A DNA stretch of 39,408 nucleotides from positions 1-39,408 of IMG/VR virus record IMGVR_UViG_2917849834_000006. The stretch is one strand, 5' to 3'. This DNA is from a virus (taxonomy: Duplodnaviria; Heunggongvirae; Uroviricota; Caudoviricetes). Position 1 is the first letter of the stretch, and every line of letters starts with the position of its first letter. The translations under genes and the position numbers were made by a program. The notes below the pieces were generated by a model that did not search any database, was not told the origin of the DNA, and saw only the letters and a list, made by a program, of their open reading frames with translations. Shown in pieces: positions 1,797 through 39,408 of this stretch.

Positions 1797-2348
1797 ATGC
1801 ACCATCCAATACCCGCACAGTTAGATACGCCTGAAACCCTGAATTTTTGTCTGAAAGTTGTTCCTGATGCTCATGCTGTATTGATTAAAAATGAACCTTT
1901 CTCGGGAGCGGAAGTTATGGACTGCTTTTCGAATGTTGAAATGGTGATTGAACAGAATGGCGGAAGAGCTGTTTACGGTTGGGCTATCTGGCAGGTACCG
2001 GGAGTTTATATTGAAGCTGAGTTCCACTGTATTTGGGAGAATGATGCTGGAGAAATGCTGGATATCACGCCATATCCTTATAGTACGGAAAATATTTTAT
2101 TTCTACCTGATAGTACGCGGATTTATAGGGGGCAGCAGGTAGACAATATCCGCCAGGCTCTTGTAAATGATCCTGATGTGATCAGATGGTTGTATCTTGC
2201 TAGAAAACGTTTTGAAATATTAAATACTGGTGACCTAGCGAACCAGCATGGGCATATTGAATTGCCACCCAAATTAGCCAAAGAGTTTAGCAAAGTTGTC
2301 GATGAGATAGAAAGGCTGTATTCCCGACTAAATCTCCGATATTCATGA
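1797..2348 (+). CDS. Hypothetical protein, low-GC cargo gene between int and xis
   Basis: 183-aa ORF; no recognisable motifs; lower GC than flanking phage genes. Confidence 0.5.
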   Translation: MHHPIPAQLDTPETLNFCLKVVPDAHAVLIKNEPFSGAEVMDCFSNVEMVIEQNGGRAVYGWAIWQVPGVYIEAEFHCIWENDAGEMLDITPYPYSTENILFLPDSTRIYRGQQVDNIRQALVNDPDVIRWLYLARKRFEILNTGDLANQHGHIELPPKLAKEFSKVVDEIERLYSRLNLRYS

Positions 2349-2452
2349 CGAGAGGGTATTGCTATAACCACTGACCATTGAAGATAACGCCTACGGCAGG
2401 CTGTTCGAGTTAGTTGTATTATGGCGGCATATGCCGCCAGTTTTAATCAGTA

Positions 2453-2656
2453 TTAGCACAGCCACGAGGTCATACCTGTAATTACGGCTTTAGTTAATGC
2501 AATTAACTCCTTGTCAGAAAGTTCTTCTAGTTCCTTTCCAGGAAATAGGCCTGGTAACATGTCATTAGCAATATGTTCCAGCTCAATATATTTTCCTAAA
2601 AGTAAGGAGTCTTTGTATAGTTCAATCAGTTCTTCTTTCATCGATAAATCCCTCAT
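2453..2656 (-). CDS. Small hypothetical protein (67 aa), convergent with the upstream cargo ORF
   Basis: ORF only; acidic helical composition. Confidence 0.35.
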   Translation of the reverse strand: MRDLSMKEELIELYKDSLLLGKYIELEHIANDMLPGLFPGKELEELSDKELIALTKAVITGMTSWLC

Positions 2657-2963
2657 TCTACGCTAGAAAAAACAATCAGTTAACGTTATATAACTAGGCG
2701 ATACTCCCAGAATTCAATTCACAATAGTGCGCACTTATTGTGAAAAGTCGGTCGTGATATGTTTTGCAGATTGCCTAAAGTGACAGTATCTTGCAGCGCA
2801 TACATCAAGAATCGCCGCCGGGCGCACCAGCTGACTGACCTGTTCCCCGTTGTTCAAGGATAGCGTTGCATCGACCCGTTGAACTCACAGCATAGCGCAA
2901 GCTGTCAGATTAGGTTTGGCTTTGTGCCATAGATGTGTCAGCTCCCATCTGAGATAATACACG

Positions 2964-3158
2964 TTACTCAATAACTCCAGCAAACCTGTATATCTTGCGT
3001 GATGCCCATTTATTTGGGCAGGATTTAATATCAGGATCTGGAAAATCAGGCCTGTATTTCTGGCCAGTTCTCCTGTTTACGCTATTCCAGCGAAGAACAG
3101 TCGATACTGAAACGCCACAGAATTCGGCAACTTGTTTTGTTGTCATTAAGTTGTTCAT
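2964..3158 (-). CDS. xis: Excisionase / AlpA-like HTH DNA-binding protein
   Basis: 64 aa; TTKQVAEFCGVSVSTVLRW helix-turn-helix typical of AlpA/Xis family; first gene of the leftward operon near int. Confidence 0.7.
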   Translation of the reverse strand: MNNLMTTKQVAEFCGVSVSTVLRWNSVNRRTGQKYRPDFPDPDIKSCPNKWASRKIYRFAGVIE

Positions 3159-3778
3159 TACTTCACCTCCTGCGGCGGCTCCGGTAGCGGTATCCAGTGG
3201 GTTACTTTCGATGCCGGTTCTTCCCCATCGTCAGTAACTGCCCACCATTTGTTTCTCGACCAATCGTAATACCCTTCGAAGGTATCGCACTCAGTCCAGC
3301 CGTAAGACTTACCCCAACACCAAACATACCGTTTATCGTTCGGCATTCGCTCACTACAGCTTATCCAACCATCCGGAATTACCGGAGAGTTGCCCGACAG
3401 CTCGTTCAACTTGTAAGTCTGGCTTACAGGTTCGGCACCATGAATCATGGCGGTGCGGCGGGCGTTCCAGCCTTCATCAAAACCGACTATGCCATTATTT
3501 AAAGACGGACGAGCATCTGGCACCACCGGTACTGGTTTGGCTATATATAGCGGCTGAACATACCAGCCCTTTGATAACCAACTGTCAGCAATGTTTTTAC
3601 TCCTGGTTATTGCCGGAATACCTAAGCCATTGTCTGAATGCAGCCATGCCACCGGATCCTCTTCCAGCGATGCCAGAGCAATTTCATAAGCACGGCGCTC
3701 AATATCGTCTCGAACCTCTAGGCTGCTGATTCGTTCTTTGATTTCTTTAATCAGTTCTTTATTGGTAAATGTGGTCAT
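3158..3778 (-). CDS. DUF551-like phage early protein
   Basis: 206 aa; C-terminal W/C-rich segment ending THWIPLPEPP characteristic of DUF551. Confidence 0.55.
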   Translation of the reverse strand: MTTFTNKELIKEIKERISSLEVRDDIERRAYEIALASLEEDPVAWLHSDNGLGIPAITRSKNIADSWLSKGWYVQPLYIAKPVPVVPDARPSLNNGIVGFDEGWNARRTAMIHGAEPVSQTYKLNELSGNSPVIPDGWISCSERMPNDKRYVWCWGKSYGWTECDTFEGYYDWSRNKWWAVTDDGEEPASKVTHWIPLPEPPQEVK

Positions 3779-4139
3779 TATGCTCAGCCTCCGGCGCTTT
3801 TGGCATTACTGCCCAGTGAGTGATATTGACGTTTTCAAGGTCCCCGACCTGAAATGTCCACTGCCATTCTCCGGTTTCTTTTTGCCCCCATGTGTACCAG
3901 AGAGAACGCCAGCCAATCAGCCAGCCTTCTCCGTTAGCATCAAATAACAGAACACTTTCATTTGCTGGTGGCAGTTCAGCTGACACTGGTATTATTTTGT
4001 TTTCCAGTGCCGCACATTTAGCTTCAAGCGCGTCGAATTTACGTACCAGGTACTCAGCATTTGTTTCGTTCACTTTCAGATCTCGCGGTACACATCTCCC
4101 ACGAAGAAACCCTTCCATTTCGAAAACATTCATGCGCAT
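3759..4139 (-). CDS. Hypothetical phage early protein (DUF551-like C-terminus)
   Basis: 126 aa; W-rich C-terminus …ITHWAVMPKAPE; overlapping, coupled with neighbours. Confidence 0.5.
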   Translation of the reverse strand: MRMNVFEMEGFLRGRCVPRDLKVNETNAEYLVRKFDALEAKCAALENKIIPVSAELPPANESVLLFDANGEGWLIGWRSLWYTWGQKETGEWQWTFQVGDLENVNITHWAVMPKAPEAEHNDHIYQ

Positions 4140-4666
4140 TTGCGTAACTCCGATAACTCGTTAAAACGTTCCATAAACATCCCGTAGGCATGGTCCGGTG
4201 CCAGTGGAATCACTTTGAACATATCTGTTGCCGGGATACCTTCCAGTACAGGCCAGAAAGAGCCATCATCAAGCCCGAGATCGCGGCGTTCGGTTGCCAG
4301 CATAATGAGATCGGCATATTTCACTGGCGTGCTCATAACCGGAGGTAACCCGTATTTCTCACGGATTACGGCGTCTATTTTTTCTTCCATCCGTTTATAG
4401 TCAGGAAGAAGGCGTTTCAGTGGTGCGGGGATGTCCTGGCAATACGCTTCTGTTGCATCATGCATTAACGCTTCAAAAGCAAATTCCTGATGCACCAGCT
4501 GGCTGCAAAGCACCGCATGTTGGGCGACGCTGTAGAAGTGAGAAAGATGACCGGCAAAGCGGCAGATATTTGAAAGGGAAACCGCGATATCGTTAATAAC
4601 GATGTCGTCTTTATTTATCTTGTCATAATAAAAATGCTTCCCGGAAAAAGTTTTAATAAATGACAT
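4130..4666 (-). CDS. HD-domain phosphohydrolase-like protein
   Basis: H…HD motif (AQHAVL…LMHDATEAY); likely start is the internal ATG at 4666 preceded by GGAG, rather than the track start at 4729. Confidence 0.6.
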   Translation of the reverse strand: MSFIKTFSGKHFYYDKINKDDIVINDIAVSLSNICRFAGHLSHFYSVAQHAVLCSQLVHQEFAFEALMHDATEAYCQDIPAPLKRLLPDYKRMEEKIDAVIREKYGLPPVMSTPVKYADLIMLATERRDLGLDDGSFWPVLEGIPATDMFKVIPLAPDHAYGMFMERFNELSELRKCA

Positions 4667-5337
4667 TTCGTTCTCCACTTTATATGCGCTGCACCGCGCT
4701 GAATTTTGGGAAAAGGAAGCCCTCACCATCCGGCGATTATTGAGTCAATTACGTTTCAATAGATGCCCCAGCAGGGGCGGTTAGTTTCTCCACAAAACAG
4801 AGAAGAACACCTGCGGTGACAGCCGCCCGGATGGATTGGGTTATGAGCCCGTCGTCCGGTGATGCTCTTCTCTGTTTTGTAAAAAGAGCGGTACCAGCCG
4901 GAAGCAATGGTACAAACTGATACCGCCAAGGCAGTGGCTGTTGTGGCGGGGTTGTCACTCAGGCGTATGGTCAGCCTGACAACCCGGTGTCCTCAACGGG
5001 GAAAGAGTAACCCCGCCATACTTACCGCCGCGCCATTTCGCGGATTACCACAACGCTGAGAGCACTTAGCCAGTTCGGCGCCACACTTTGTCTCGGCTCC
5101 ATAAATGCTCTTATCGTTGCACCCTGGTCTCTTCCCAGGCGTCAAACCGAATCGCCACGCTGGTTAGGCGTCTTATCAGCATCATCATTGACTTGCACAT
5201 TCCGGCTACCTGGTTTGTTTGCCCGAGCAAGGAGTGGATTGTCCCCTTTAACGTCTCCAGACCGCTAACGACGCATGTGCCATACGCCGTGTTACAACCA
5301 AACTTTGTTTGAATCTTGCCTGTTGCATGTTTCTTTT

Positions 5338-5371
5338 GGATACATTATGTATCCCAAGGGTACATTGTCAA
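5338..5371 (-). promoter_or_regulatory. Candidate leftward early promoter (PL-like) with overlapping operators
   Basis: Minus strand TTGACA (5371-5366), 16-nt spacer, CATAAT (5349-5344); 17-bp palindrome GGATACATTATGTATCC (5338-5354) and operator-like site TGTATCCCAAGGGTACA (5348-5364). Confidence 0.45.
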
Positions 5372-5398
5372 GTATAAAAAAACCTGCCGAAGCAGGTT
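5372..5398 (-). terminator. Rho-independent terminator downstream of the cI-like gene
   Basis: Minus-strand hairpin AACCTGC-ttcg-GCAGGTT followed by a T7 run, 13 nt after the cI stop. Confidence 0.6.
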
Positions 5399-5410
5399 CA
5401 TAAATATTGA

Positions 5411-6085
5411 TTAGGTCTTTATTTTGTATCTTCTTGGTTTTCCCGAGAAAATCACTGTACCAATTATAGAGCAATTACCGTTGATCTTAATGTAAGGTTC
5501 AGGCCAGTTTGGGTTTAATGCTTTGAGGTAACGCTGTGTTCCATCTTCTATCAACCGCTTGAAGGTGGTTTCGCCTGTATCGTGCATCAATGCAATAACG
5601 TCGTCACCGTGGCAGGCAGGGACTTCAGGATCAACAAAAATCATGTCTCCTGGGCGGTACTCATCAATCATTGAATCACCAATCACCCGCAAGATATAAG
5701 TCATTTCACCACAGGGTACAGGGCAGGGATAAGTTTCTGCTGTGCTCAAATCAACCTCAGAATAACCAACTTCTTTCCATGCTCCGGCCTGTACCCATGA
5801 TATGACAGGGACTAACGTTATTTGTTTGTTAGTGATTGAAACATCAGGTTTTTTTGTGATGTTCGTTGTCTGGTGTTCTTGATCAAGCCATCCGACAGGC
5901 AGGTCGAAACATTTTTCGATGTGCCGTGCCATGCTGTCACCGATATTTTTAGTTGCACCATCTCCCATAAACCTGCTGGTCTGGGTTGGCTCGCGATCAA
6001 TCATGGTGGCAAAGGAAGAATTCCCGCCAACACCATCTCTCAGTTTTCTGGCGTTAGACCGCCGGATGTCATGGACTGTTTTCAT
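5411..6085 (-). CDS. cI-like repressor with C-terminal S24 (LexA-like) autopeptidase domain
   Basis: 224 aa; N-terminal HTH region and C-terminal VIGDSMIDEYRPGDMIFVDPE S24 signature; divergent from the cro-like gene. Confidence 0.85.
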   Translation of the reverse strand: MKTVHDIRRSNARKLRDGVGGNSSFATMIDREPTQTSRFMGDGATKNIGDSMARHIEKCFDLPVGWLDQEHQTTNITKKPDVSITNKQITLVPVISWVQAGAWKEVGYSEVDLSTAETYPCPVPCGEMTYILRVIGDSMIDEYRPGDMIFVDPEVPACHGDDVIALMHDTGETTFKRLIEDGTQRYLKALNPNWPEPYIKINGNCSIIGTVIFSGKPRRYKIKT

Positions 6086-6100
6086 AATGAAATTAAAACC

Positions 6101-6169
6101 CTTGTACCGTTAAGGTACAAGTATCTTGAAGGTTCATTTTAATCATGTAATATGTACATCGGAGGTACA
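6101..6169. promoter_or_regulatory. OR-like operator/promoter region with two 17-bp operators (TGTACC-N5-GGTACA at 6103-6119; TGTACA-N5-GGTACA at 6153-6169)
   Basis: Perfect palindrome CTTGTACCGTTAAGGTACAAG at 6101-6121; second near-identical site overlapping the cro RBS; candidate rightward promoter TTGAAG (6126-6131), 16 nt, TAATAT (6148-6153). Confidence 0.6.
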
Positions 6170-6175
6170 TATTGT

Positions 6176-6376
6176 ATGAAAGCGTATTGGGACTCTTTAA
6201 CCAAAGAACAGCAGGGCGAGTTGGCCGGAAAAGTTGGCTCAACACCAGGCTACTTACGGCTGGTTTTCAATGGTTATAAAAAAGCCAGTTTTGTGCTGGC
6301 TAAAAAAATTGAGCAATGCACGTCAGGTGCAATTACGAAATCTGACTTAAGACCGGATATCTATCCGAAAGATTAA
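6176..6376 (+). CDS. Cro-like / YdaS-like HTH regulator
   Basis: Small basic protein divergent from cI; likely start is the ATG at 6176 after GGAGG, rather than the track start at 6152. Confidence 0.65.
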   Translation: MKAYWDSLTKEQQGELAGKVGSTPGYLRLVFNGYKKASFVLAKKIEQCTSGAITKSDLRPDIYPKD

Positions 6377-6407
6377 CAGAACACCTTCAATTTTTAACCA
6401 CAGAACG

Positions 6408-6971
6408 ATGAGGCTAACCGTGGGTAAGCATCACTGGAAAGTAGAAAAACAGCCTGAGTGGTACGTGAAAGCTGTCAGAAAAACTATCGCGGCATTGCCG
6501 GGGGGTTACGCTGAAGCTGCTGACTGGCTGGATGTAACAGAGAACGCATTATTTAACCGCCTTCGTGCCGATGGCGATCAGATTTTCCCGCTGGGATGGG
6601 CAATGATTTTACAGCGCGCGGCTGGCACTCACTACATTGCGGATGCTGTCGCACAGTCTGCTGGTGGGGTGTTTGTATCGCTTCCTGAAATTGAGGAAGT
6701 AGAGAACGCCGATATAAACCAGCGCCTGCTGGAAGTCATCGAACAGATCGGGAGTTACTCAAAGCAGATTCGTTCGGCAATCGAAGATGGGGTAGTGGAG
6801 CCACACGAGCAGACAGCAATTAATGATGAGTTGTATCTGTCAATTTCGAAGCTCCAGGAGCATGCAGCACTGGTCTACAAAATCTTTTGCGCTCCAGAAA
6901 AGAGTGACGCCCGCGAGTGTGCAGCTCCGGGCGTCGTGGCGTTTTGTGTCTGTGGAGAAACTAACGCATGA
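6408..6971 (+). CDS. CII-like regulatory protein (CP76/YdaT-like), tentative
   Basis: 187-aa ORF directly after cro; family assignment is from position and general resemblance only. Confidence 0.4.
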   Translation: MRLTVGKHHWKVEKQPEWYVKAVRKTIAALPGGYAEAADWLDVTENALFNRLRADGDQIFPLGWAMILQRAAGTHYIADAVAQSAGGVFVSLPEIEEVENADINQRLLEVIEQIGSYSKQIRSAIEDGVVEPHEQTAINDELYLSISKLQEHAALVYKIFCAPEKSDARECAAPGVVAFCVCGETNA

Positions 6972-7804
6972 ACAGTTTAACGGCAAATAATCGTTTGTCG
7001 CAACAGCTGGTGGTCAGTGTCGCTGAACACCTGTTGTTACGGCATGAATGCAGATTACCAAATCACCTGGCTGTAAGTAACCACAGAGAACTTTACCTGA
7101 CTGTGGGGGGCGAGTTGTGCAGGAACTTAACCGCTGGTTTCGTGACGGAAGAGGGCTTTATGTCCATGTTATTCGTTGGGAGCCAGAAACACAGCGCGTT
7201 ATCTATCTTCGCAAAGACTACCCGCATGAGTGCTTTAGTCCTTTGTGGAAATTCAGGCGTGATTTTGTTGAGTGTGAAGGACCACCAGCACATTGATTCT
7301 GCCATTCTGGGACGTTACACTGTTCAGGCACCTTATAAAGCGGGTGCCGGGATTGGCGTCCTGGAATTGCATACGGCGACAATTGGCGCGTTAGCGTCTT
7401 TTTTGTTGCTACAACTCAGCTATACCCAAATTATGGTGGGCTGGGTGGGGGCACCGAAAGGTGCGCCGGTTTCCGTATGCGCCGGTTACGCCAACCCTGC
7501 TCAGTTCACCACCAGCGAAATTGGCGTTTCCGGTGGTGGAAGTTATCCATTGCATACGGAGGCTGCCATCATGGCTACTGTCCCAGCCCTCTCTCGTCTG
7601 AATGATGACGACTTACATAAACTCAGTTATGTAACAACTGCACTACGTGCTCTGCGCAAGGTAACTCTTTCGGATCCGCAGGCGCATCAGGTTCTGGTAG
7701 AAACCCTTCTTAACTTGCAGGCTGAACGTATTCGTCTGGCGGATAAGGCTAATTTTCATATTCACCGTCTCCTTAATATCAGCGGAGGGCATCGTCATGC
7801 TTAA
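6968..7804 (+). CDS. Hypothetical protein (early right operon)
   Basis: 278-aa ORF with overlapping stop/start coupling; an alternative-frame protein-like ORF at about 7078-7260 leaves the reading frame in this segment uncertain. Confidence 0.4.
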   Translation: MNSLTANNRLSQQLVVSVAEHLLLRHECRLPNHLAVSNHRELYLTVGGELCRNLTAGFVTEEGFMSMLFVGSQKHSALSIFAKTTRMSALVLCGNSGVILLSVKDHQHIDSAILGRYTVQAPYKAGAGIGVLELHTATIGALASFLLLQLSYTQIMVGWVGAPKGAPVSVCAGYANPAQFTTSEIGVSGGGSYPLHTEAAIMATVPALSRLNDDDLHKLSYVTTALRALRKVTLSDPQAHQVLVETLLNLQAERIRLADKANFHIHRLLNISGGHRHA

Positions 7805-34467: not shown

Positions 34468-36531
34468 GTGAATATGGCAGTACAGATTTCAGGTGTGCTG
34501 AAAGACGGTGCAGGAAAACCGATACAGAACTGCACCATTCAGCTCAAAGCAAAACGTAACAGCACCACAGTTGTGGTGAACACGGTGGCCTCAGAAAATC
34601 CGGATGAAGCCGGACGTTACAGCATGGATGTTGAGTATGGCCAGTACAGCGTCGCCCTGCTGGTTGAAGGTTTTCCGCCTTCACATGCCGGGACCATCAC
34701 CGTGTATGAGGATTCTAAGCCGGGGACATTGAATGATTTTCTGGGCGCTGCAACAGAAGATGATGTTCGTCCGGAGGCACTGTATCGTTTTGAAAAGATG
34801 GTGGAAGAGGCGGCACGCAACGCTGAAGCCGCCTCTCAGAGCGCAGCGGCAGCAAAGAAATCAGAAACAGCAGCGGCATCGTCCAGGAACGCGGCGAAAA
34901 CATCAGAGACGAATGCAGGTAACAGCGCGAAAGCGGCAGCTTCTTCAAAAACAGCCGCACAAAATGCAGCAACAGCGGCAGAACGTTCAGAGACAAATGC
35001 CCGTGCGTCAGAGGAAGCCTCCGCAGACAGTGAAGAGGCTTCCCGCCGTAATGCAGAGTCAGCCGCTGAGAATGCCGGAATCGCCACCACAAAAGCGCGG
35101 GAGGCCGCAGCAGACGCAACAAAGGCCGGGCAGAAAAAGGATGAGGCTCTGTCGGCAGCGACACGAGCTGAAAAGGCGGCAGACCGCGCAGAAGCCGCAG
35201 CGGAAGTGACTGCAGAGCCCTATGCGAATATAGTGCCGCCGCTGCCTGATGTGTGGATACCGTTTAACGATTCACTGGATATGATTACGGGGTTTTCGCC
35301 ATCATATAAAAAGATTGTTATTGGTGACGATGAAATAACAGTGCCAGGCGACAAGATTGTTAAGTTTAAACGAGCTTCAACAGCAACATATATCAATAAG
35401 TCAGGCTCGTTTGTTGTGGCAGATGTTGATGAAGCCAGATTTGAAAAGTCTGGTTTACTGATAGAAGGGCAACGTACTAATAATTTCATTAACAGTAATG
35501 CACCAGAAGCATGGAACTTTAATAATAAACGTCTTGATGTAAACAGTAATCTCGATCCATTTGGATTCAGCTATGGTGTTCTGACGTATAAAGATTCATC
35601 TGATACCGGGCCTGTGACGCTCATTTCAACAGGAACAGGTCGGGTTATCTCTGTGGAAAATGGTGACTCTGTTACAATTTCTGCCCGATTCAAGGGAAAC
35701 GGAATCAGGGCGAGAATGCGCATATCGAAGCTGAATGATGATGGCGCAGGGAATACTTTTATAGCAGATGCGCTTCTGGATTTGAGCAATCTGACATTAA
35801 AAAGTGATGTGCTTTCGTCATCTTTCGTAGTGGAAAACAGCGGATGGATATTCTTTCAGTCAACCTATAAATCTGATTCATCACAAAATATATATGCCCG
35901 AATAGAAATGTATCAACAGGAAGGCAATGAAATTAAGGTCGGTGACAGTATATCAATGGCAACGCCTCAGGTTGAGAAAGGAACTGCTGCATCATCATTC
36001 ATCATAACAGGGGGAACACCGGCAACGCGAGCCAGTGATATTGTGACAATCCCATTAAATAAAAACTGGGTGCGAAGGCCACTGACAGTACTGACAGAGT
36101 GCAGTGTCTCATGGGACGTTATGCCAAATACCACGGGCGCAGCAAGGATATTAAATATTTCCACTACGGGAGACTCAACAGATATAGCTGACCAGAGTTA
36201 TATGTATCTTGGTTTTATCTCAAAGGGCTCAAAAGCAATCATCACGAATGGAAAGGGAACTATGGCAGAGATAAAAAGTGACATTGCTGTTTCAGGGCGA
36301 AAAAACATTATTGGCGGAAGGTTTAAAGAAGACGGGAGTCTGTCTGTAGTGGTAAATGGAAATATCGGTGGTGCATCGGTTTCGCCTTATAATGATACAA
36401 GATATCTTAATGGTTTCATGAATATAGGGGGGCAATCCTCCACCGGAGACAGGCATTTATTTGGACATGTCAGAAATCTGCGAATCTGGCACAGGGAATT
36501 GAATGACAGGCAATTAAAAGAGGCCGTATGA
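34468..36531 (+). CDS. stf: Side tail fibre protein, chimeric (lambda Stf-like N-terminus, divergent low-GC C-terminal domain)
   Basis: N-terminus MAVQISGVLKDGAGKPIQNCTIQLKAKRNSTTVVVNTV… resembles lambda Stf; Ala-rich coiled-coil middle; C-terminal ~400 aa unrelated and lower GC. Confidence 0.85.
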   Translation: MNMAVQISGVLKDGAGKPIQNCTIQLKAKRNSTTVVVNTVASENPDEAGRYSMDVEYGQYSVALLVEGFPPSHAGTITVYEDSKPGTLNDFLGAATEDDVRPEALYRFEKMVEEAARNAEAASQSAAAAKKSETAAASSRNAAKTSETNAGNSAKAAASSKTAAQNAATAAERSETNARASEEASADSEEASRRNAESAAENAGIATTKAREAAADATKAGQKKDEALSAATRAEKAADRAEAAAEVTAEPYANIVPPLPDVWIPFNDSLDMITGFSPSYKKIVIGDDEITVPGDKIVKFKRASTATYINKSGSFVVADVDEARFEKSGLLIEGQRTNNFINSNAPEAWNFNNKRLDVNSNLDPFGFSYGVLTYKDSSDTGPVTLISTGTGRVISVENGDSVTISARFKGNGIRARMRISKLNDDGAGNTFIADALLDLSNLTLKSDVLSSSFVVENSGWIFFQSTYKSDSSQNIYARIEMYQQEGNEIKVGDSISMATPQVEKGTAASSFIITGGTPATRASDIVTIPLNKNWVRRPLTVLTECSVSWDVMPNTTGAARILNISTTGDSTDIADQSYMYLGFISKGSKAIITNGKGTMAEIKSDIAVSGRKNIIGGRFKEDGSLSVVVNGNIGGASVSPYNDTRYLNGFMNIGGQSSTGDRHLFGHVRNLRIWHRELNDRQLKEAV

Positions 36532-36806
36532 AAGATTTAACTTTGAAGTTTCATGACAAACTGCAGTTTAAGGCCTTCCTGTCATCTCTTGGCTGGGCGG
36601 AAGATGAAGACCTCCAGAATAAACTGTTAGTTGATGAAATTGGTGTCACCTACACAGAAACAGGGGTAACTGAAGAGGGAGAACCTGTCTGTATCCGGAA
36701 TGACGGTTATTTTGTCAACATTCGTATTCTTGATGACTTGTTTGATGTTTCTGTATTCTCTGATTATGTCGTGGAGCTGGAAACACCGCTTCGGGAATGG
36801 AGCTGA
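36528..36806 (+). CDS. Hypothetical protein, possibly a tail fibre assembly chaperone
   Basis: 92 aa, acidic, ATGA overlap with the tail fibre gene; function inferred from position only. Confidence 0.4.
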   Translation: MKDLTLKFHDKLQFKAFLSSLGWAEDEDLQNKLLVDEIGVTYTETGVTEEGEPVCIRNDGYFVNIRILDDLFDVSVFSDYVVELETPLREWS

Positions 36807-36818
36807 AAGGAGGAAATA

Positions 36819-37104
36819 ATGGATATAAGCCCCTTACTTCATGCACTTTGTGCTGTAGCTGCGCAGATACTGGTTGGTCTTTTTACCGGAAACTGGGTTT
36901 ACGGTGCGATAGCCGGTTGTACGTTCTTCATTGCGCGTGAACACACCTAGGCAGAATATCGCTGGATTGAAATGTTCGGGCATGGCAAGCGTATGAATAT
37001 GCCGTGGTGGGGCGGTTTTGATCCACGTGCTTGGGATGTGGCAAGCCTGATGGATTTTGCGGTGCCGGTGGTAGCGTGTCTGCTGGTCTGGCTGTTTATC
37101 CGTT
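36819..37104 (+). pseudogene. Small membrane-protein ORF interrupted by an in-frame TAG (amber) after codon 43
   Basis: Strong RBS AAGGAGG before the ATG at 36819; MDISPLLHALCAVAAQILVGLFTGNWVYGAIAGCTFFIAREHT-TAG-AEYRWIEMFGHGKRMNMPWWGGFDPRAWDVASLMDFAVPVVACLLVWLFIR; frame stays protein-like after the stop. Confidence 0.45.
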
Positions 37105-37112
37105 AAACATAA

Positions 37113-37148
37113 AAAGCCGCAGCAACTTGTCATGGCAGGATACTGCGG
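37113..37148 (-). terminator. Hairpin between convergent genes, candidate terminator of the RT operon
   Basis: AGCCGCAG … CTGCGGCT 8-bp stem with 20-nt loop; T-rich tract follows on the minus strand. Confidence 0.45.
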
Positions 37149-37213
37149 CTGGTTTGTGAGTTTAAATAGTGTGTTTATTACGGTATATTTAAAGGACTTA
37201 ATGGATTACATAT

Positions 37214-38590
37214 CTATGATATTCCTGAAATATCCTCTTCAAGTTCTTTTACTGATTTCGCAATTTTAAATTTAAATTTCCTCTCTATTTCACTATTGCT
37301 AAGTTTTTTTTCCTTCTCTTTCCCTATCCACATAGAAACAAGTTCTCGTTTCTGAGATATATGTAGATTGTCAAAGTTAGGTATGTATTTAAAAGTCTCC
37401 GCTCTACCTCTGCGGAGTTCATAGAAAGTTTTAATCAAAGACTTTGGTTTTATTTCTGATAAAAGGCCGAATCGGCGGATAAGATTATTGATAGTATGAT
37501 TAACAGAGCGAAGTTGAGCTGTTGAGGTTATTTGTGAGAAGTACGATACCCATCCCAATCGTTTACCTTCAAACACACATCCCGTAATTCTGAGATTTAG
37601 TTTCCACTGACAATATGCAACAGCTCGTTCTTTATCGCGCTTACTTTTAGCTTGTAGTAGAGCGTGCCTATATGCAGTAAAAATTTTTGCTAAGGATGAC
37701 TCAAATCTAAGAATGCTCTCATGTTTTATCAATAATTCTCGATTTTCTATGTGGTATCCCAAAAAGTTAAAACTTTCATCCAAGCTGCCTACTTTGGATT
37801 TTGAGTTCTCTTCATTTAATGGATGTGGGTTTAAATTTAATGATTGAAGCTTATCAATGATATGAGATGTTATTTTTGTTGCTTGATATTTGGGCGTTAA
37901 AATAAGAATGTCATCAACGTATCGCATGTACCATATGCCATGCATTTTATTGATTTCATCATCGAAATTAGATAGTGATATTTCAGCTAAAATGTTTGAT
38001 ATCGCTAATCCCTGAGGTACTCCTCTGGTATTATTAGGGATACCTTTGCTTCCTGTACTTCCACTTACAGTAGGTACGATTAATGATGATGTTATTAACT
38101 GTCTAATTTCTTTTTTTCTAATCTTATTTTTTATTGCATTAAATATCAATTTATGTTCAATTGAAGGATAGAAACTTTTAAGATCTATTTTTGCATATTC
38201 AGCATATAGACTGCAGTTTAATGCTTCTTTCAATGAGTCAATTACTGTATGTGGTAGTTTTAATCTGGAATTAGGATATATTTCCGTAAGGCATTCACAG
38301 AGAGCCCTAAGAGTAATTCTGTCCCTAGCAGTTGGTATGGAAATCTGTCTGGGGGTAGAGTTAGCCCCTTTAGATATTAATTTTTCTTTATATGCTGTAA
38401 ATTTATAATTGCCAGAATTAACCTTTTCAAAAATGAAAGTGATCTCATTGTTTATTGTTAAATCAAGTTTTGATGGGCGAATCCGATCTATGCCAATCGC
38501 TCCTGATTCTTTGATTTTTTCAGTGTATACTTTTAGAAGGTTTTTTTTCGAGAATGACTTTTTAAAAATTCTACTTGCAGTCATAGTCAA
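37214..38590 (-). CDS. Reverse transcriptase (prokaryotic defence-type; retron/Abi/DRT-like, family unassigned)
   Basis: RT motifs read in translation: PRQISIPTARDRITLRAL, IDLKSFYPSI, GVPQGLAISNILAEI, WYMRYVDDILIL (YVDD catalytic box), FLGYHI; C-terminal extension of about 150 aa; about 30% GC; track start is TTG, an ATG lies at 38584. Confidence 0.9.
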   Translation of the reverse strand: MTMTASRIFKKSFSKKNLLKVYTEKIKESGAIGIDRIRPSKLDLTINNEITFIFEKVNSGNYKFTAYKEKLISKGANSTPRQISIPTARDRITLRALCECLTEIYPNSRLKLPHTVIDSLKEALNCSLYAEYAKIDLKSFYPSIEHKLIFNAIKNKIRKKEIRQLITSSLIVPTVSGSTGSKGIPNNTRGVPQGLAISNILAEISLSNFDDEINKMHGIWYMRYVDDILILTPKYQATKITSHIIDKLQSLNLNPHPLNEENSKSKVGSLDESFNFLGYHIENRELLIKHESILRFESSLAKIFTAYRHALLQAKSKRDKERAVAYCQWKLNLRITGCVFEGKRLGWVSYFSQITSTAQLRSVNHTINNLIRRFGLLSEIKPKSLIKTFYELRRGRAETFKYIPNFDNLHISQKRELVSMWIGKEKEKKLSNSEIERKFKFKIAKSVKELEEDISGIS

Positions 38591-39113
38591 TCCAAAGATA
38601 TATTAATGGTAGTATATAAAGTGCGGCAGTAATAAATATTCGAAGTAATATCCATAAATTAACAATTATTTTTTCTTTTTGTGTGGGGAGCCTCGTCGTA
38701 AGTCCAACTTGAGTTACCCTTGAAACTTTATCATCTATCTCACGATGATTCTCAACCTCATTGAGCAAATTAAAATATTTTTCTTTCTGTTCAGGAGTTA
38801 ATTGTTGGCCGTTGGTAATGTCAAAATAGAGTCGCTGTAGTGCAATATAATTCCTTCTCATGGCTATTGCTCGACCACGAAAATCTAGGTTAGATACGAT
38901 CAGAGAAATACCTAGTAGAGCCACTGAAAGTATCGCTGCAACGATATCTGTATTATCTCCTAGAACTTTTGGAAATCGTAACGTTACAATTGAAAGCACC
39001 GCACTCAATATAGCATACCAAACGAGGATTAATTGAGAGTGTTTTTCAAGCCATTCTAGTCGATGGTGCGCTTGGATACGGGCTTTATATGTAAACCAAA
39101 TATTGTCATGCAT
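38571..39113 (-). CDS. Small multi-pass membrane protein co-transcribed upstream of the RT (candidate effector)
   Basis: 180 aa; three hydrophobic helices (about residues 27-45, 57-77, 152-176) around a charged middle region; AGGA RBS; ends 8 nt before the RT ATG; same low GC. Confidence 0.7.
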   Translation of the reverse strand: MHDNIWFTYKARIQAHHRLEWLEKHSQLILVWYAILSAVLSIVTLRFPKVLGDNTDIVAAILSVALLGISLIVSNLDFRGRAIAMRRNYIALQRLYFDITNGQQLTPEQKEKYFNLLNEVENHREIDDKVSRVTQVGLTTRLPTQKEKIIVNLWILLRIFITAALYILPLIYLWIDYDCK

Positions 39114-39134
39114 AAAAGATCCTTTTTTAAAAGC

Positions 39135-39275
39135 GGAAGGGGCAGGATATATTGGAACCGTTGAACATCCTGCCCGGCAGGATCAGTGAGCATAAGCTCA
39201 ACAGTAAAATATTACTGTTCATTATCAGAGCCGCCCTTGCATGCGCAAGAGGAAAAACCTGCCCCATCCTTTTGA
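39135..39275 (-). ncRNA. Candidate structured non-coding RNA upstream of the membrane-protein/RT operon (possible msr-msd-like element)
   Basis: Nested inverted repeats: GGGCAGGAT (39140-39148) with ATCCTGCCC (39167-39175); GGAAGGGGCAGG (39135-39146) with CCTGCCCCATCC (39258-39269); small hairpins CTTGC-gcat-GCAAG and CAGTAA-tatt-TTACTG; no ORF. Confidence 0.25.
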
Positions 39276-39408
39276 ATTATTACAATTTAATGATCTTAAA
39301 GTCAATACAAGTGAATGGTGTCCAGGGATGATGAACTTAATGAACAAACCACTCGTCAGCAGACTCCCAAGTATCTTTCAGAGTTTCCTGAACAACAGTT
39401 TTAGCTGA

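Follow-up and report, generated by a model that had tools for sequence, protein, structure and literature searches.

A reverse transcriptase (RT) gene located directly downstream of a gene for a small membrane protein, near one end of the Caudoviricetes genome held as IMG/VR record IMGVR_UViG_2917849834_000006, raises the question of which RT family the pair belongs to and whether it forms a complete anti-phage system. The whole stretch analyzed, positions 1 to 39,408 of that record, is referred to here as the window. An earlier sequence-only reading had recognized an RT-plus-effector anti-phage module that it could not assign to any family and that it considered possibly uncharacterized. Profile matches to UG17/DRT10 and SLATT_5 agreed with the first of these proposals and overturned the second, because the RT is a UG17/DRT10 enzyme approximately 98% identical to that of Eco3DRT10. 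We hold with high confidence that the locus is a complete, apparently intact DRT10 (UG17) anti-phage system of the Eco3DRT10 type, comprised of a structured noncoding RNA (ncRNA), a SLATT membrane protein, and the RT.

Systems of this type are already known. The combination of UG17 and SLATT was a predicted defense pair in a family that bioinformatic work had delineated by 2022 (Mestre et al., PMC9226505), and DRT10 was characterized experimentally in 2025-2026 in two preprints (Tang et al., PMC12632851; Sanchez-Nieto et al., 10.64898/2026.04.29.721553). Tang et al. reported defense, the need for all three parts, complementary DNA (cDNA) made of tandem repeats, priming from a serine, and the rules of an A-B-A' template. 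Phage resistance requiring the RT, SLATT, and the ncRNA has been documented for Eco1-3 DRT10 (PMC12632851) and for the E3659 system (10.64898/2026.04.29.721553), and published work on the Eco3 homologue includes the detection of cDNA, challenge with a phage panel, and mutants in which YVDD was changed to YVAA or SLATT was deleted (PMC12632851). Near-identical to a characterized model system, the window locus is a correct but ordinary find. The features that encode its two proteins are as follows.

37214..38584, minus strand: UG17 (DRT10) reverse transcriptase, 456 amino acids from the ATG at 38584 (458 amino acids from the TTG at 38590)
37910..37921, minus strand: codons of the catalytic YVDD, residues 222-225 in 456-amino-acid numbering, from the translation
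37217..37219, minus strand: codon of Ser456, the last residue of the RT and its predicted protein-priming residue
38571..39113, minus strand: SLATT_5 membrane effector (family from PADLOC, Pfam, and NCBIfam), 180 amino acids, with three hydrophobic helices

The RT matched the PADLOC RT_UG17 profile over its full length (E value, 1.9e-158; 525.9 bits; protein residues 3-458 against profile positions 1-429 of 429). The next-best PADLOC family was Drt3a (1e-36), and Drt2 (2.7e-25) and Drt9 (3e-20) were secondary matches. Placement in the UG17 group is thus by the score of a hidden Markov model (HMM) rather than by a tree. Scores against the group II intron, Drt3a, Drt2, and retron equivalog models were far below every cut-off. 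When compared to the Eco3DRT10 RT (OKX54664), the window RT had 9 substitutions in 399 comparable residues (97.7% identity), a comparison that covers the first 399 residues of OKX54664 only. The exact 458-amino-acid sequence had no entry in the protein collection that was searched.

The open reading frame (ORF) list of the window places the RT at 37214-38590 (458 amino acids from the TTG) and the membrane protein at 38571-39113 (180 amino acids), both on the minus strand and at the coordinates that the sequence-only reading had given. The RT length of 458 amino acids in that reading describes the ORF from the TTG, but RefSeq annotates the RT of a near-identical E. coli locus as 456 amino acids, with a start codon that is the ATG matching 38584. 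Two N-terminal residues in the 458-amino-acid annotation of the Eco3 RT are spurious (Tang et al., PMC12632851). The SLATT and RT genes overlap by 14 nucleotides when counted from the ATG and by 20 when counted from the TTG, and on the basis of this architecture the locus was assigned to subtype A. Neither ORF is a chance ORF, because the HMM E values were 1e-158 (RT) and 1e-56 (SLATT).

The YVDD box, which had been noted before, is encoded at the position listed and was unchanged across 11 RT homologues (59 to 83% identity). Ser456 was invariant in the same homologues, down to 59% identity, and was preceded by a conserved ELEEDI motif. Priming by this residue (S456, or S458 in NCBI numbering) has been demonstrated for Eco3DRT10 (Tang et al., PMC12632851). 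Pfam recognized only RVT_1, at residues 74-281, C-terminal of which lie approximately 175 residues. Alignment extends as far as residue 374 for the group II RT/maturase model and residue 432 for Drt3a, and thus the C-terminal extension appears to consist of a thumb/maturase-X-like region followed by a tail of approximately 80 amino acids that ends in the priming serine. A sequence search of PDB returned no DRT10 RT structure and no SLATT_5 structure. The closest relatives of the RT there were group II intron RTs, DRT2, DRT3a, and 9ioa, a 499-amino-acid chain labeled only as an RNA-dependent DNA polymerase, and more distantly TERT, chains of which were matched at E values of ∼6e-8.

The partner protein matched PADLOC RTasSLATT (1e-56), Pfam SLATT_5 (4.9e-28; 98.2 bits against a cut-off of 29.5), and NCBIfam SLATT_5 (135.5 bits against a cut-off of 60), so that the earlier suggestion of a SLATT-like protein was correct. 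Kyte-Doolittle analysis likewise recovered the three hydrophobic helices that had been read in this 180-amino-acid protein, at about residues 25-48, 54-79, and 147-175. Its sequence is identical to WP_135489604.1 from Escherichia sp. E4702, the only strain returned by an exact look-up.

The sequence-only reading had also, correctly, placed a structured RNA ahead of the membrane protein gene and the RT gene behind it. The RNA is real, although it lies outside the span that had been given for the module. The spacer of 223 nucleotides between the stop codon of a DinI-like gene (39337) and the SLATT ATG (39113) contains both a promoter-like site and a stable fold, with the following elements.

39276..39305, minus strand: sigma-70-like promoter candidate, TTGACT, 18-nucleotide spacer, and TG-extended AATAAT
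39133..39269, minus strand: DRT10 ncRNA, 137 nucleotides, length and ends placed by analogy with Eco3DRT10
39258-39269 paired with 39135-39146, minus strand: ncRNA stem-loop 1 (SL1), the basal stem
39234-39251, minus strand: ncRNA SL2
39200-39219, minus strand: ncRNA SL3
39188-39199, minus strand: ncRNA SL4
39167-39183, minus strand: ncRNA SL5
39147-39166, minus strand: single-stranded template loop of the ncRNA
39155..39163, minus strand: predicted template A-B, 5'-CAAC GGUUC-3', ncRNA positions 107-115, homologous to Eco3
39151..39154, minus strand: A' realignment segment, 5'-CAAU-3', ncRNA positions 116-119, its role taken from Tang et al.

The fold had a minimum free energy (MFE) of -57.2 kcal/mol (z = -4.95), and none of 200 shuffled sequences was equally stable. 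In order to evaluate conservation of the helices, the window was aligned with 14 homologous loci that were found via the RT (59 to 83% protein identity), giving 15 loci from six genera, the homologues coming from Xenorhabdus, Buttiauxella, Photorhabdus, Pseudomonas, and Stutzerimonas. In this alignment 95.8% of the cells were paired and 18 pairs had compensatory changes, values that were reached by none of 500 shuffles. When the 3' partners were slid by one to three columns as a control, pairing fell to 46 to 54%. RNAalifold independently returned the same five helices, the basal stem and four internal stem-loops. A further GG/CUG helix in the MFE fold, between positions 38-44 and the template loop, was rejected as spurious; it varied among the loci with little sign of compensation (90.5% paired, one compensatory pair), and RNAalifold did not return it. 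The template loop was left single-stranded, matching the published model.

With the 5' end placed at 39269, ncRNA bases 116, 117, and 119 are C, A, and U, the same as C116, A117, and U119 of Tang et al. Because these bases agree, the window ncRNA is considered colinear with the Eco3 ncRNA, which is 137 nucleotides long and directly upstream of SLATT (Tang et al., PMC12632851), and would span about 39269-39133. A permissive search of 36500-39408 with Rfam 15 returned no family at E≤1, so that the DRT10 ncRNA had no match there.

The promoter candidate was the best site in a scan of the region, with 10 of 12 matches, and its -10 hexamer ends 7 nucleotides before the likely 5' end of the ncRNA at 39269. 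The Xenorhabdus, Buttiauxella, and Photorhabdus loci have a TTGAC or TTGAT hexamer and an A/T-rich -10 element at the same position of the alignment. We infer from its sequence and position that 39276..39305 is the putative promoter of the ncRNA. On the minus strand at 39113-39133, 19 nucleotides separate the likely 3' end of the ncRNA (the basal stem and then UUUU) from the SLATT start codon, and the scan of the region revealed no second promoter-like site on this strand. Because of this short gap and the lack of another promoter-like site in the region, the SLATT-RT mRNA is probably transcribed from the ncRNA promoter by read-through or else initiated within the ncRNA.

The A-B-A' pattern CAAC-GGUUC-CAAU occupies ncRNA positions 107-119 and begins 3 nucleotides past SL5. 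All 15 aligned loci had CAA in both the A and the A' segment. UUCAA before B and CAA after B were also invariant, and B varied in sequence and length, with a period of 9 or 10. The Eco3 template, CAAUGAUUC (CAAU-GAUUC, followed by A' CAAU), has been shown experimentally to give d(GAATCATTG)n (Tang et al., PMC12632851). The predicted cDNA product of the window allele is d(GAACCGTTG)n, also a 9-nucleotide tandem repeat. The A (CAAC) and A' (CAAU) segments of the window match at three of four bases, with a dG:rU wobble at the fourth, a position that is tolerant (Tang et al., PMC12632851).

In the mechanism that has been shown for the ∼98%-identical Eco3 system and is expected of the window locus, the RT would bind the ncRNA and use the hydroxyl of the serine at its C terminus as the primer for DNA synthesis. 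It would then copy the short template A-B just 3' of SL5 and halt at a boundary defined by SL5, upon which the nascent 3' end would unpair and reanneal to A', so that the cycle repeats in a telomerase-like manner. The expected product is kilobase-length single-stranded DNA (ssDNA) of tandem repeats that remains covalently attached to the RT. Synthesis of the cDNA would be constitutive, with phage infection altering the state or abundance of the ssDNA, a change in which host ExoI/SbcB and phage SSB-like proteins have been implicated. The altered ssDNA is thought to switch on SLATT, a presumed pore-former, and thereby to cause abortive infection. This coupling of cDNA to SLATT is the least certain step, and how repeat ssDNA gates SLATT is a question for the whole family rather than one specific to the window locus. 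Synthesis of repeat cDNA, which has been demonstrated in vivo and in vitro for Eco3DRT10 (PMC12632851), would be expected of the window allele from the 98% identity and the conserved template.

The closest known system, Eco3DRT10 (E. coli 703491; RT, OKX54664), is one of three E. coli model systems and the main one of Tang et al. It has the same order of ncRNA, SLATT, and RT, the same five stem-loops, a 9-nucleotide template and 4-nucleotide A' that are positioned alike, the YVDD box, and the priming serine at the C terminus. It differs from the window in its template (CAAUGAUUC versus CAACGGUUC), its repeat (GAATCATTG versus the predicted GAACCGTTG), and the length of SLATT (183 versus 180 amino acids). 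UG17-A of Escherichia sp. E3659 also resembles the window locus, with overlapping SLATT and RT genes, an ncRNA directly upstream, and a host in the Pseudomonadota, and it makes tandem-repeat cDNA and needs all three parts (10.64898/2026.04.29.721553). However, its ncRNA is 143 nucleotides long with six described stem-loops and its repeat is 7 nucleotides; its RT gene is 1,338 nucleotides (coordinates 33,297-31,960). Control by SbcB and an SSB-like trigger (Sanchez-Nieto et al., 10.64898/2026.04.29.721553) were shown for the E3659 system and not for the Eco3 type.

DRT9 (UG28) and DRT2 (UG2) are, like DRT10, class 2 UG/Abi RTs that make repetitive cDNA from an ncRNA template. The DRT9 ncRNA architecture is reportedly similar to that of DRT10, and DRT9 is also protein-primed, but its product is poly-dA copied from poly-U, and its priming residue is a tyrosine. 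In DRT2, rolling-circle copying yields a concatenated gene (neo), and there is no SLATT effector. The DRT9 and DRT2 profile scores of the window RT were far below its UG17 score. Telomerase resembles DRT10 in its repeat-addition processivity from a short internal RNA template, in having an alignment segment (A'), and in a structured 5' boundary, with SL5 comparable to the template boundary element (TBE) (Tang et al., PMC12632851). It extends chromosome ends, whereas DRT10 is protein-primed, has a 456-amino-acid RT without TEN or TRBD domains, and functions in immunity. DRT10 is of interest because its compact bacterial RT acts in the manner of telomerase, to which a proposal in the literature relates it by evolution.

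Several observations weigh against simply equating the window locus with Eco3DRT10. As noted above, the RT comparison ends at residue 399 of OKX54664. The window template CAACGGUUC differs from the Eco3 template CAAUGAUUC at positions 110 and 112, which is the reason that its product sequence is only predicted. G112 also creates an alternative 8-nucleotide register, GUUC-AACG-GUUC, that could in principle compete. However, Eco3 has a weaker UUC...UUC equivalent of this register and still makes 9-mers, and therefore 9-mers are expected from the window allele. SLATT ends in ...DYDCK* in the window rather than in ...DYDCKQNF* as in Eco3 and is thus 3 amino acids (QNF) shorter, because TAG replaces CAG through a single C-to-T change relative to the Eco3 type within 38571-38584 that is synonymous in the overlapping RT frame (AGC to AGT, Ser). 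From the annotations compared, this 180-amino-acid SLATT appears to be a minority form, and its activity is predicted. The mechanism proposed for the window allele is carried over by analogy from the ∼98%-identical Eco3 system, and on one point the preprints disagree, with cDNA falling upon infection in one and rising in the other (PMC12632851 versus 10.64898/2026.04.29.721553).

The alternative that survives best is that the locus is DRT10 by descent but nonfunctional, decaying prophage cargo as a result of the SLATT truncation or a lack of expression. The shortened SLATT could be read in this way, as could the internal stop in the adjacent small gene at 36819-37106 and the decay of E. coli relatives such as the APEC O78 copy, in which the RT is split and IS2 lies upstream of the ncRNA. 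However, both ORFs in the window are intact, and the locus retains YVDD, Ser456, the helices of the ncRNA, A-B-A', and the promoter-like site. The lost QNF residues are downstream of the last hydrophobic helix of a protein that otherwise has 10 differences from Eco3 SLATT in 180 residues (94% identity). Six complete genomes have the exact ncRNA segment of the window, and in the two of them that were examined (loci L001 and L017) the 180-amino-acid form is annotated; SLATT was 183 amino acids in the three E. coli loci examined outside that six-genome group. The 3-amino-acid truncation is the sole concern, all known functional determinants being intact. Thus, it seems very unlikely that the locus is nonfunctional.

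An intact DRT10 system is also far better supported than a retron, in which the RT would make multicopy single-stranded DNA from an msr-msd RNA and act with a 2TM effector like that of retron Ec48. Retrons share the logic of an ncRNA, an RT, and a membrane effector, and there was weak similarity to retron models (NF038233, 60.6 bits; PADLOC 2TM effector, 1e-4). The NF038233 score compares with a cut-off of 235 and with 526 bits for UG17, however, and the Rfam search of 36500-39408 revealed no retron msr or other family at E≤1. The ncRNA has the five stem-loops of DRT10, flanking inverted repeats of ≥20 nucleotides were not found, and the C-terminal priming serine is conserved in the window RT, whereas retrons prime from the 2'-OH of a branching guanosine. 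A retron can be dismissed with near certainty.

A mobile group II intron RT or a diversity-generating retroelement (DGR), the two families that the sequence-only reading had named as grounds for its refutation, is equally implausible: although TIGR04416, the RT/maturase model, aligned to RT residues 16-374 (E value, 2.3e-41) and group II intron RTs are the nearest by sequence among solved structures, the TIGR04416 score was 142.1 bits against a cut-off of 300, the Pfam match to GIIM was subthreshold, Rfam found no intron RNA domains in 36500-39408 (E≤1), the RT is flanked by the SLATT gene rather than by intron RNA, and 36000-39408 contained no pair resembling a template and a variable repeat, the only direct repeat being a chance-like, T-rich pair of 21 nucleotides with 76% identity. 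DRT3 (UG3+UG8) was also rejected, with 111.4 bits for NF041747 Drt3a against a cut-off of 200 and only one RT gene at the locus.

Differences among template alleles are a feature of DRT10 within E. coli. Of 5,426 complete E. coli genomes, 188 contain the DRT10 ncRNA, always on the chromosome. Six of these 5,426 genomes match the window exactly over an 84-nucleotide segment proximal to the template, and 34 have the exact Eco3-type segment. At position 110, the window has C where Eco3 and E. coli locus L018 have U; L018 has the exact Eco3 template, CAAUGAUUC, and the remainder of its ncRNA is near-identical. All sampled loci outside the Eco3-type group (APEC O78, ST131, and a Xenorhabdus homologue) carry the window template, CAACGGUUC. 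This allele therefore appears to be both older and more frequent, and CAAUGAUUC to be derived and in the minority in E. coli. The part of the supplement of Tang et al. (PMC12632851) that was searched contained no match to the CAACGGUUC template. It is conceivable, though doubtful, that this polymorphism is functionally meaningful and that template alleles and SLATT variants form coevolving specificity pairs, as could be the case if the sequence of the repeat were recognized by the SLATT effector or by phage triggers. Multivalent binding, with one SLATT monomer per repeat, is a speculation of Tang et al. (PMC12632851). If there were such pairs, the window locus would provide a natural second "code word" for testing whether the repeat sequence is read.

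As one more copy of a system present in 188 of 5,426 complete E. coli genomes, the window locus adds little to what is known of DRT10. It does show that reading a sequence alone can pick out a genuine RT defense module, that the template studied in the laboratory (Eco3) is apparently a minority allele in E. coli, and that DRT10 has a fixed position in lambdoid prophages, between tail-fiber and DinI-like genes, at at least three chromosomal integration sites. The E. coli prophages in which the cassette has this position are at prfC, dusA, and yecD/aspS.

In the window, the plus strand holds the tail-fiber genes and the other large ORFs of the late genes, among them upstream ORFs for a 1,160-amino-acid J-like protein and a 687-amino-acid tail fiber, whereas the RT and SLATT genes are on the minus strand. 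The module is followed in the closest complete genome by a DinI-like gene, beyond which prfC marks the end of the prophage. The module is a moron placed after the tail-fiber genes, at the prfC-proximal (right) end of a lambdoid prophage. The strands and this genomic context are consistent with the accessory position, opposite to the late genes, that had been proposed from the sequence. The GC contents proposed at the same time, about 30% for the module and 52% for the phage, were roughly right; the measured values were 0.337 for the RT and SLATT genes and 0.508 for window positions 1-36806.

The DinI-like gene was considered as a fourth component and rejected. It adjoins the module in every E. 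coli context examined, but the Buttiauxella and Pseudomonas DRT10 loci have umuDC or unrelated genes as neighbors and no DinI-like gene, and its presence was therefore attributed to prophage architecture. The window ends within this gene (39337-39408, minus strand), and the 23 codons that it contains encode a sequence identical to the C terminus of the 82-amino-acid DinI-like protein of E. coli E400634. On the other side of the module, the small predicted membrane-protein gene at 36819-37106 (plus strand), between the tail-fiber genes and the RT, has an in-frame stop (AREHT*AEYRW). The E. coli E400634 counterpart is intact, with 95 amino acids and Q at the stop position, and the APEC O78 counterpart, which also contains an internal stop, is annotated as a pseudogene.

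In some genomes whose DRT10 is near-identical, an additional segment of ∼1.75 kb separates the DinI-like gene from prfC (L017, NZ_OZ040973.1, positions 4280-6030). The segment contains a DUF4760 gene, a fragment of a capsid gene, and a second DinI-like gene and may be what is left of a second prophage, or it may represent another accessory gene. The APEC O78 copy (L019, NC_020163.1, positions 1905-5344) is in a prophage at dusA beside a tyrosine integrase. Its RT is split into two ORFs, IS2 is inserted ∼300 nucleotides upstream of SLATT, a short way past the region of the ncRNA promoter, and this DRT10 is probably in decay. A DRT10 with the same template allele as the window, an RT that is ∼95% identical, and a SLATT that is ∼91% identical is present in E. 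coli ST131 strain 4993 (L020, positions 2623-6081), in a different prophage next to yecD/aspS. There the DinI-like gene has a frameshift, and the tail-fiber assembly gene has a gene for a macro-domain protein beside it. In Buttiauxella sp. B2 (L003, positions 435-2125 and 4556-7234), the DRT10 homologue is directly downstream of umuD/umuC, with no obvious prophage tail region, and is followed by several unannotated ORFs and a gene that by eye is SRAP/YedK-like, a setting that may be a defense island.

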